Source: Escherichia coli
GTDB taxonomy: Bacteria; Pseudomonadota; Gammaproteobacteria; Enterobacterales; Enterobacteriaceae
DNA length: 64,000 nt
NCBI RefSeq assembly: GCF_044647545.1
Contig: NZ_CP172818.1
Direction: 5' to 3' (one strand)
Made by a program: the position numbers. The stretch's first letter is position 1, and each line of letters begins with the position of its first letter. Of the stretch, positions 49,857 through 52,800 are shown piece after piece.

Positions 49857-52800
49857 TAAAGTCTGCCCGGTTCGCCGGGCATCTTCCTGTCAGAAGCGAT
49901 AATCCACTGCCATAAAGTAACGACGTCCGTCTTCGTTATAGCTGTAGTCGTCACGACTGAGATCCTTGTCGCCAAGGTTCAGCACGCCTGCGCGCAGTTT
50001 GACGTCTTTAGTTACCTGCCAGGCCGCACCGGTATTCCAGATGGTATAACCGCCCGGTGTTTTAGCCGTCGCGCTGTCGGCGCGTTTCTGCCCGGTATAG
50101 TGACCAGAAACATAGAATGACCAGTCTTCCAGCGCCAGCGGTTTCCAGTCCAGCGTACCGTTAGCAGTATGGAACGGCAGATCGGATAGCGGTTTATTTT
50201 CGCCGTTGCTGACATCACGACCATCGTTGTAGGTGTAGTTGAGTGACAGTTTCCATTCATCGTTGAACGGAATTTTCAGTTCGGTTTCCACGCCCTGAAT
50301 ACGTGCTTTGTTAACGTTGTAGTAGCTAAATACCGGTATGCGCCGTCCGTTAGCGCCCGTCTCAAAACCAACAAAGTTTTGGTAGCCCGGTGCAGCGTTG
50401 ACGTCAGACGTACGGCTGATGCTGATACGATCTTTCACATCGTTACGGAAAACGGTAACGCTGGATTCAACCCCTTCCAGCCAGCCTTCTTCACCCATGT
50501 AGTAAAGCCCCAGCTCCCAACTTTCGCTGGTTTCTGGTTTCAGATCCGGGCTACCCACAATCTTACATGCGCCACGGCAGGAATTGCTCGTCCAGTCAGG
50601 GCTAAGTTGCAACAGAGAAGGTGCTTTAAATGCCGTCGCCCAGCCCCCTTTCACCGTTACGGTGTCGGTGGCGTTATAAACCAGGTAGGCACGCGGACTC
50701 CAGTGTTCACCGTAGGTTTCGTGATCGTCCATACGCACGCCGGTCGTCAGCGCCAGCGGCTCGAAGATCCGCCATTCATCTTCCACAAACAGCGCGTACT
50801 GGCTGGCAGACGTTTTGGAGCTGGTTCCCCCGGTCAGGTTCACCGCATCGCTAAGTTTGTCGTGACGCCATTCACCGCCAACCGTGAGAAACTGATTAAT
50901 CGCCGTCAGCGGCAACGTGTATTTGCCGTCGACCGTATTGCTTTCGGAAGTTATCGGGCTGCTGTAGCCAGGGTTTTTGTTCTCGACTTTCTCACCGTAG
51001 TATTTCAGTTCGCTGGTGCCGTAATCCCAACGCCCATTATGGCTGACGGAGTAGTTCTGGCGTTCCAGGCGGTTTTTGTCCAGCGAGTCGGAATCACGAT
51101 CCTGACGGTCGAAACCGTATCCGGCAGTAAAATCGTGATTTTGATTCGGTGTCCAGGCAAATTCGACATTGCCGTCGCGGCTGGAGAATCCTTCAATACG
51201 CGGCGTTTCTCCGGTATCGGTGGTCGTTGAGTTTTGCGGGTCATCCTTTTCACGTTTTGCCAGGCTGCCGTAAGCTTTCATTCCCAGCACGCCGTCAATT
51301 AATGGTCCGCTGGTAAAGAACTGACCGTTATAGGTATCACCGCGATCGCGATGTTCCTGAACGGTGGTATCGACGGTAACGGTGCCCGACCATTTCTGAC
51401 CGATTTTTTTGGTGATGATATTCACTACACCGCCGAGCGCATCGGAACCGTACAGCGACGACATCGGGCCACGGACCACTTCAATACGTTCGATGGAATC
51501 GACCGGGATCCAGTTCAGATCGAAATCATTGTGGCGGAAGACGGCATTGCGGGAGTTAACGCGTTTACCGTCGACAAGAATCAGGGTGTAGCTGCTGTCC
51601 AGACCACGAATACTTACGCCCTTACGGTTATCCCCTTCGTTCGTCAGTTGTACGCCAGGCACTTCTTTGAGGACATCCTTCAGATTCTGTACCGGTTTTC
51701 GCTGCAGGTCTTCCTGGGTAATGACGCTGATACTGGCGGGTGCATCTTTAAGGTTTTGCTCAACGGAAGATGCAGTGACAACCATCGTTTCGCCATCATC
51801 ATCGACCGCTAACACAGGCCATGCACAAGAAATAGCGGACAAACACAGCCCGACCCGTACGAAAGGGTTCAACCTAAACATTCCATATCTCCATGAGGTA
51901 ACTACGAAAATAAAATGGGTATCGCTCACATCTTCTTTACGTCCCCTTGCGTACGGCAGCATCGCGGTGGACTTATTTGTATGCAGGTGATCATCCCAGA
52001 AAGCCGGAACAGCCTCTGATTTGTCAGCCTTTTTTGATTGCGGCGTAACGATAATGCAAACGATAACAATTATCAATCCAAATGTTAAATTTTATATCCG
52101 CATGATTTGTCAGGGAAATGGAATTGAAAAAGCCCTCTCGGTTGAGAGGGCTTAGCAAGGAAGGGAGGAAACTTATTTCTTATCGTTCTGCGGGAACTTC
52201 ATTTCGCTGTAGCGTACGAAGTGAGTTCCTTTAATCAGCTTGTATCCGAACCAAATAATCAGGAACAGCGGGATACCAATATACGTTGCCGCTACGCCGC
52301 CCCAGTCAATGGTATCTTTCAGGAACGCTTCGTAGTTCTGGCCCAAAGTGATAATCAGACACAGAATGAATGCGAAGATCGGCCCCAGTGGGAAGAAACC
52401 TGAACGGTACGGCAGATCGTTAATGTCGTGTCCCTGCAATACGTACCCGCGACGGAAACGATAGTGGCTAATGGCAATCCCCAGCCAGGCGATAAAACCG
52501 GTCATCCCGGAGGTGTTCAGCAGCCACAGGTATACCGTCTGGTTGCCAAACATGGAGGTCAGGAAGCACAGACCTGCAATCACCGTCGTCGCATACAGCG
52601 CATTACGCGGCACGCCACCACGCGACAGTTTAGCGAAAATGCGCGGCGCTTTACCGTCACACGCCAGGGTGTACAGCATACGAGTAGACGCATACATACC
52701 GGAGTTACCCGCTGACAGCACCGCCGTCAGAATAACTGCGTTCATCACCGCCGCCGCAGAGAGCAGACCCGCGTGCTGGAACACCAGGGTGAACGGACTG

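Follow-up and report, generated by a model that had tools for sequence, protein, structure and literature searches.

The 64,000-nucleotide (nt) stretch of Escherichia coli DNA analysed here (NCBI RefSeq assembly GCF_044647545.1, contig NZ_CP172818.1; hereafter the window) carries on its minus strand the gene cirA, whose product is a catecholate-siderophore receptor and also the receptor for colicins Ia and Ib. We conclude, with near certainty, that the interval upstream of cirA is the control region of this gene, consisting of a double promoter repressed by Fur and a long untranslated leader regulated by small RNAs (sRNAs). An earlier reading of the raw sequence, referred to below as the sequence-only reading, had inferred this real, multi-layered control region. 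Experimental work spanning 1987–2017 had already established the Fur operator, tandem promoters, long leader and sRNA control of cirA, which is among the best-characterised Fur- and sRNA-controlled genes of E. coli. Two small points are new: an apparent open reading frame (ORF) of 728 amino acids (aa) is a minority allelic artefact, and the conserved functional module of the leader is the last ~ 55 nt of a sequence whose length otherwise differs widely from genus to genus. CirA is the route by which colicins Ia/Ib and siderophore-conjugated antibiotics (cefiderocol, for example) enter the cell, hence the medical relevance of its regulation.

The Fur operator and the tandem promoters

The Fur-like 25-mer GATAATGCAAACGATAACAATTATC was located on the plus strand at 52050–52074, which is 169–193 nt upstream of the cirA ATG (A at 51881, minus strand; negative positions below are counted from it). 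The sequence-only reading had placed a Fur-box-like sequence about 170–190 nt from the start codon, and its position was right within a base. The hexamer-array pattern of this 25-mer, GATAAT-N6-GATAAC-A-ATTATC, had no matches in 100 dinucleotide-preserving shuffles of the window, and the 7-1-7 Fur consensus TGATAATNATTATCA, with at most two mismatches, was matched twice in the 64 kb against 0.26 matches expected. Simply counting mismatches to the 19-bp Fur consensus was not discriminating, as the cirA box scored 14/19 (5 mismatches) and was tied with several other sites in the window. This count is what would be seen if the Fur-like sequence were a chance AT-rich match and the iron regulation of cirA were exerted elsewhere; the hexamer-array and 7-1-7 patterns, in contrast, show that the box is non-random.

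Published binding data bear on the same sequence. Chen et al. (2007, PMC2189734) place the DNase I footprint that Griggs & Konisky (1989) obtained with Fur at NC_000913 2244957–2244999. The identical 43-bp stretch in the window takes in the complete 25-mer, both − 10 hexamers, the p2 − 35 element, most of the p1 − 35 element and the p1 start. The same authors list a predicted cirA Fur site cluster centred at − 189 from the start codon, and Beauchene et al. (2015, PMC4676285) report in vivo Fur binding upstream of cirA by chromatin immunoprecipitation (ChIP), together with a RyhB-dependent rise in cirA RNA.

For comparison across genera, one scan of species-representative genomes gave 80 cirA loci, from Escherichia through Buttiauxella; motifs were counted over 82 sequences, and 20 genera were aligned. 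A strong 7-1-7 Fur box was present 101–210 nt upstream of the ATG in nearly all 80 loci, a TGATAA box was found no more than 260 nt upstream of cirA in 74 of the 82 sequences, and the promoter/operator core ATTGATAA...TTATC was invariant in the 20 genera. Taken together, the non-random patterns, the identity to footprinted K-12 DNA, the invariant core, the overlap with both promoters and the ChIP binding effectively refute a chance match, to which we assign practically no probability. The Fur-like sequence is a real Fur operator at a Fur-repressed promoter, with binding and iron repression taken from the published K-12 work on the identical sequence.

The relation of this operator to transcription follows from the K-12 start sites. 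According to Guillier & Gottesman (2008, PMC2588501), who cite Griggs et al. (1987), cirA has two promoters, with leaders of 173 nt from p1 and 160 nt from p2. When these starts were transferred via exact flanking sequence, p1 fell on A 52052 and p2 on A 52039, so the long upstream region noticed in the sequence-only reading corresponds to a mapped leader. A promoter scan supplied the hexamers listed in Table 1. The Fur box overlaps the p1 − 10, the p2 − 35, the p2 − 10 and the p1 start, while the p2 − 35 element overlaps both the Fur box and the TTG taken as the spurious start of the 728-aa ORF. The Fur box looks far from the ATG because the mRNA has an untranslated leader of 158–171 nt and the box sits on the promoters. 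The opposite arrangement, with transcription starting beside the ATG and Fur bound elsewhere, is contradicted by the published start mapping.

The overlapping sigma-70 promoters p1 and p2 start transcription at about 52052 and 52039. With iron, Fe2+-Fur on 52045–52087 would occlude the − 35 and − 10 elements of both promoters; without iron, both would be expected to fire.

Small-RNA control and the conserved end of the leader

The sequence-only reading had suggested that a long leader could carry additional post-transcriptional control. That is so, and such control has already been published for OmrA/OmrB, for RyhB with Hfq, and for Esr41. When the leader was searched for pairing sites, as that reading had advised, the OmrA/OmrB and RyhB sites were recovered independently. 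The search used K-12 sRNA sequences and windowed scans of their seed regions; whole-sequence RNAduplex runs gave only huge, looped and meaningless duplexes.

The best RyhB duplex was formed by GAUGUGAGCGAU, with 12 contiguous pairs to RyhB nt 41–53 (dG − 20). Wang et al. (2015) combined a compensating RyhB mutant with the cirA oligonucleotide JW5381, which replaces TGTG by GTAT exactly in the RyhB core; direct activation of cirA by RyhB was confirmed in that study by ribosome profiling and compensatory mutations. Salvail et al. (2013), as cited by later papers, describe RyhB as pairing upstream of an Hfq-bound translational enhancer, restructuring the 5′ untranslated region (UTR), preventing Hfq binding and activating cirA translation. 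From secondary accounts of that study, the A/U-rich tract AUUUUAUUUU at 51916–51907 is likely the Hfq-binding "translational enhancer" element.

For OmrA, the best duplex lay at − 36..−9, and the same site was second-best for OmrB (dG − 16.1 vs − 16.4 at − 133..−113). This computed site matches the published one, in which OmrA/OmrB pair with − 19..−10 and with a dispensable − 35..−27 segment, as proven by compensatory mutations, with Hfq and RNase E needed (PMC2588501). In enterohaemorrhagic E. coli (EHEC), the EHEC-specific sRNA Esr41 represses cirA 7.6-fold.

These sites are also the conserved part of the leader. TGTGAG occurred at − 45..−59 in 72/82 sequences and CTCATGGAG at about − 16 in 80/82. 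The motif ACCTCATGGAG was near-invariant in the 20 genera, with 10 of its 11 positions invariant and the remaining one at least 90% conserved. In the 20-genus alignment, TGTGAG(C), the U-rich tract and ACCTCATGGAG...GGAATG were invariant or almost invariant; most genera retain the U-rich tract, with an exact sequence that varies. The OmrA/OmrB and RyhB sites hold fixed distances from the ATG across species, and it is the 5′ part of the leader whose length changes, giving leaders of about 100–210 nt among genera with a middle that has no alignment. Since the Fur box stands 101–210 nt upstream nearly everywhere, a long leader is ancestral and its length very variable. The conserved motifs and the unalignable middle further show that the functional module consists of the promoter/operator and the last ~ 55 nt. 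Consistent with this is the published result that deleting − 149..−54 leaves cirA expression and OmrA/OmrB control largely intact (PMC2588501).

The last ~ 55 nt of the leader act as a hub of post-transcriptional control. Hfq on the A/U-rich tract beside the ribosome-binding site would keep translation down. RyhB, itself Fur-repressed and made in the same low iron, pairs just upstream at GAUGUGAGCGAU and activates translation, which it would do by remodelling the leader and displacing Hfq. OmrA/OmrB, which are OmpR-controlled, pair over the Shine-Dalgarno region (− 19..−10), leading to a translation block and RNase E decay, and in EHEC Esr41 adds repression.

Several observations weigh against this account of the promoters and leader. 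The duplex energies are not significant when compared with shuffled leaders, of which 25/100 paired as well for RyhB and 59/100 for each of OmrA and OmrB. The assignment of the hexamers to promoters is our own, and it leaves 7–8 nt between − 10 and start, which is slightly long for p2. The start sites, the footprint and the Hfq mechanism rest on secondary citations. Finally, the window's leader is not the K-12 leader: it carries two separate 1-nt deletions and one substitution, being otherwise identical, and the deletion at − 41 (GAUAACCC to GAUACCC in the RNA) separates the RyhB site from the A/U tract. As to the energies, non-significant values are usual for sRNA targets, and the support for the pairing sites is their conservation and the published genetics, not energy.

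Two further observations concern the end of the leader. A GGAA at − 3..+1 (51882–51885, minus strand) is present in the window and kept across genera. When it is mutated, cirA-lacZ expression rises 3- to 8-fold, an effect whose mechanism Guillier & Gottesman leave unexplained (PMC2588501).

Leader alleles and other readings of the leader

Relative to K-12, the two deletions in the window change CATAAAAAATAAG to CATACAAATAAG and GATAACCC to GATACCC, and the substitution is G>A at − 59; the polymorphic stretch is 51882–51990. The lysP-cirA region was found in 5425 of 5426 complete E. coli genomes, always annotated in the order lysP – cirA. The window's exact 55-nt allele occurred in 1312 of 5421 genomes (about 24%), and the other 4109 (about 76%) differ; among these, the three matches listed span 56 nt. 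The − 41 indel adjoining the RyhB site might make RyhB/Hfq control differ from one E. coli lineage to another and, through it, sensitivity to colicin Ia.

This allele also accounts for the long ORF. A mechanical ORF call gives 49890–52076, 728 aa with a TTG start at 52076, and the sequence-only reading had remarked that the leader is open in frame (728 vs 663 aa), considering the extension probably spurious. Both remarks hold. In the window allele only, no stop interrupts the 70 codons that precede the ATG, and this openness is what would speak for translation of CirA, or of a separate upstream peptide, from TTG 52076 or another in-frame start in the leader. The TTG, however, lies upstream of both starts, 52052 and 52039, and so is off the mRNA, and the signal peptide of CirA begins at the annotated Met, followed by the TonB box ETMVVTA. 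The frame is also not conserved: an in-frame stop follows after 10–15 codons in K-12, in five other Escherichia representatives and in Salmonella. In K-12, which carries the usual extra base, an in-frame TGA lies inside the RyhB site at − 48..−46, and the window escapes it because of the 1-nt deletion at about − 41. The exact allele belongs to the minority of genomes counted above, and two 1-nt indels are tolerated within E. coli in the same stretch. A 22-codon upstream ORF in another frame, starting at GGGAUGAUC, lacks its ATG in Salmonella and has no aligned counterpart in other genera. Coding of both the extension and the upstream ORF was thus rejected on frame conservation, the extension also as off the transcript. 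The 65-codon in-frame extension is an untranslated allelic accident, and the chance that the 728-aa ORF or an upstream peptide is real is negligible.

A leader of 158–171 nt could in principle be a structured RNA acting in cis (a riboswitch, thermosensor or attenuator, for instance) that senses a ligand or condition directly, and the consensus fold does contain a small hairpin with the Shine-Dalgarno in its loop and the AUG paired. We regard this as very improbable. No Rfam family was found in the leader even at E < 0.01, and a search with permissive E-values returned nothing relevant, with only sub-threshold hits over the lysP terminator. The minimum free energy (MFE) of the leader was no better than that of shuffled sequences (z = +0.55; 150/200 shuffles fold at least as well), and RNAalifold on the 20 genera gave a covariation term of − 0.3 kcal/mol, which is essentially no covariation, with pairs that never vary. 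The unalignable middle, the range of leader lengths and the harmless − 149..−54 deletion also speak against it. As an observation on the fold itself, the MFE structure pairs CCGUACGCAAGGGG in the leader (− 75..−62, 51943–51956) with CCCUUUCGUACGG in cirA codons 5–9 (51855–51867), both on the minus strand. The RyhB site, the A/U tract and the ribosome-binding site would all lie between the two arms of this long-range helix. Its CCGUACGCAAGGGG arm is Escherichia-specific, other genera having a local GC hairpin in that position.

In addition to the known regulators, the poorly conserved 5′ two-thirds of the leader (about 52039–51945) might be more than a spacer and hold a further, undescribed regulator site, for example one for FnrS at UCACCUGC giving anaerobic repression. 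The first 8 nt of FnrS are complementary to UCACCUGC (51990–51983, minus strand, − 109..−102) over 8 perfect base pairs (dG − 15.6), and a CA(C/U)CUGCA block near − 100 is kept in long-leader genera, where the C/U difference would still pair via G-U. Reports that cirA shows O2-dependent differences even without Fur (PMC4676285), and the suggestion of Guillier & Gottesman that other controls may act through the 5′ leader region (PMC2588501), are consistent with such a site. If true, oxygen would join iron (Fur, RyhB) and the envelope (OmrA/OmrB) as an input to cirA control. We nevertheless consider it unlikely. The FnrS match was noticed post hoc and is not significant, as 11/100 shuffled leaders reach an equally good pairing. 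Just 27 of the 80 species loci contain the block, and many genera lack the 5′ leader part altogether. The − 149..−54 deletion has little effect aerobically (PMC2588501), and a literature search found no FnrS-cirA link, cirA being absent from FnrS target lists.

The coordinates of the features are collected in Table 1. The 479 bases around the cirA control region are 100% identical to strain FDAARGOS_497. The gene upstream is lysP (52173–53642, minus strand; stop codon 52173–52175), and its terminator is the upstream limit of the cirA control region.

Table 1. Features of the cirA control region in the window; positions are those of the whole 64,000-nt stretch
Feature	Position	Strand	Remarks
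lysP intrinsic terminator	52130..52153	-	Hairpin, then T run; terminator scan: 10-bp stem, 6 GC pairs
p1 − 35, TTAACA	52083..52088	-	Promoter scan, 17-bp spacer to TATCGT; p1 assignment deduced from the published 173-nt leader
p2 − 35, TTGATA	52071..52076	-	Promoter scan, 17-bp spacer; p2 assignment deduced from the published 160-nt leader
p1 − 10, TATCGT	52060..52065	-	Promoter scan; TG precedes the − 10; p1 start 52052 lies 8 nt downstream
p2 − 10, TATCGT	52048..52053	-	Promoter scan; p2 start 52039 lies 9 nt downstream
Sequence identical to the 43-bp K-12 cir Fur DNase I footprint	52045..52087		K-12 coordinates (PMC2189734) transferred by exact sequence match
Fur box array, GATAAT-GCAAAC-GATAAC-A-ATTATC (plus strand)	52050..52074		Contains a 7-1-7 inverted repeat (TGATAATtGTTATCg on the minus strand)
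cirA 5′ untranslated leader	51882..52052	-	171 nt from p1, 158 nt from p2 in the window allele (K-12: 173, 160)
RyhB pairing site GAUGUGAGCGAU (− 51..−40)	51921..51932	-	Core UGUGAGC 51930–51924
A/U-rich tract AUUUUAUUUU (− 35..−26)	51907..51916	-	Between RyhB site and Shine-Dalgarno; candidate Hfq site
OmrA/OmrB pairing core UACCUCAUGG (− 19..−10)	51891..51900	-	Overlaps Shine-Dalgarno GGAG (51892–51889)
cirA coding sequence	49890..51881	-	663 aa; RefSeq WP_022645882.1 on 100% identical DNA

Across genera, the distance from the Fur box to the ATG was about − 195 in Escherichia, Salmonella and Kluyvera, about − 208 in Klebsiella and Raoultella, about − 161 in Buttiauxella, about − 135 in Enterobacter, about − 120 in Atlantibacter and Pseudescherichia, and about − 101 in some Leclercia. 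No good Fur box was seen within 260 nt upstream in loci L066, L070, L071, L073, L076, L079 and L084. Within the window, the sole other match to the 7-1-7 Fur consensus (TGAGAATAATTATTA, 2 mismatches) lies at 39169–39183 on the plus strand, between yeiS and preT (yeiT), about 135–150 nt upstream of preT. For yeiT, the compilation of Chen et al. (2007, PMC2189734) includes an upstream Fur cluster, at − 163, that is predicted but not footprinted.

Comparison with known systems

The closest counterpart is the K-12 cir p1/p2 region with its Fur operator (Griggs et al. 1987; Griggs & Konisky 1989), which is the same locus with an identical footprint and the same gene neighbours. The two sequences are identical from the lysP terminator to about − 100, and the differences beyond that are only allelic, the window's leader being 2 nt shorter with one substitution. 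Like cirA, other Fur-repressed genes for TonB-dependent receptors (fepA, fhuA, fecA and fiu) have a Fur box over sigma-70 promoter elements; cirA is unlike them in its tandem overlapping promoters and unusually long leader. Its Fur cluster is centred at − 189, compared with − 25 to − 93 for most others listed by Chen et al. (PMC2189734).

At the RNA level, the window shares with the RyhB/Hfq control of cirA (Salvail et al. 2013; Wang et al. 2015) the UGUGAGC core and the adjacent A/U tract upstream of the Shine-Dalgarno, and differs from the K-12 system by the 1-nt deletion between the RyhB site and that tract. For OmrA/OmrB repression (Guillier & Gottesman 2006, 2008), the − 19..−10 core and the Shine-Dalgarno are identical to K-12, with no difference detected in these elements.

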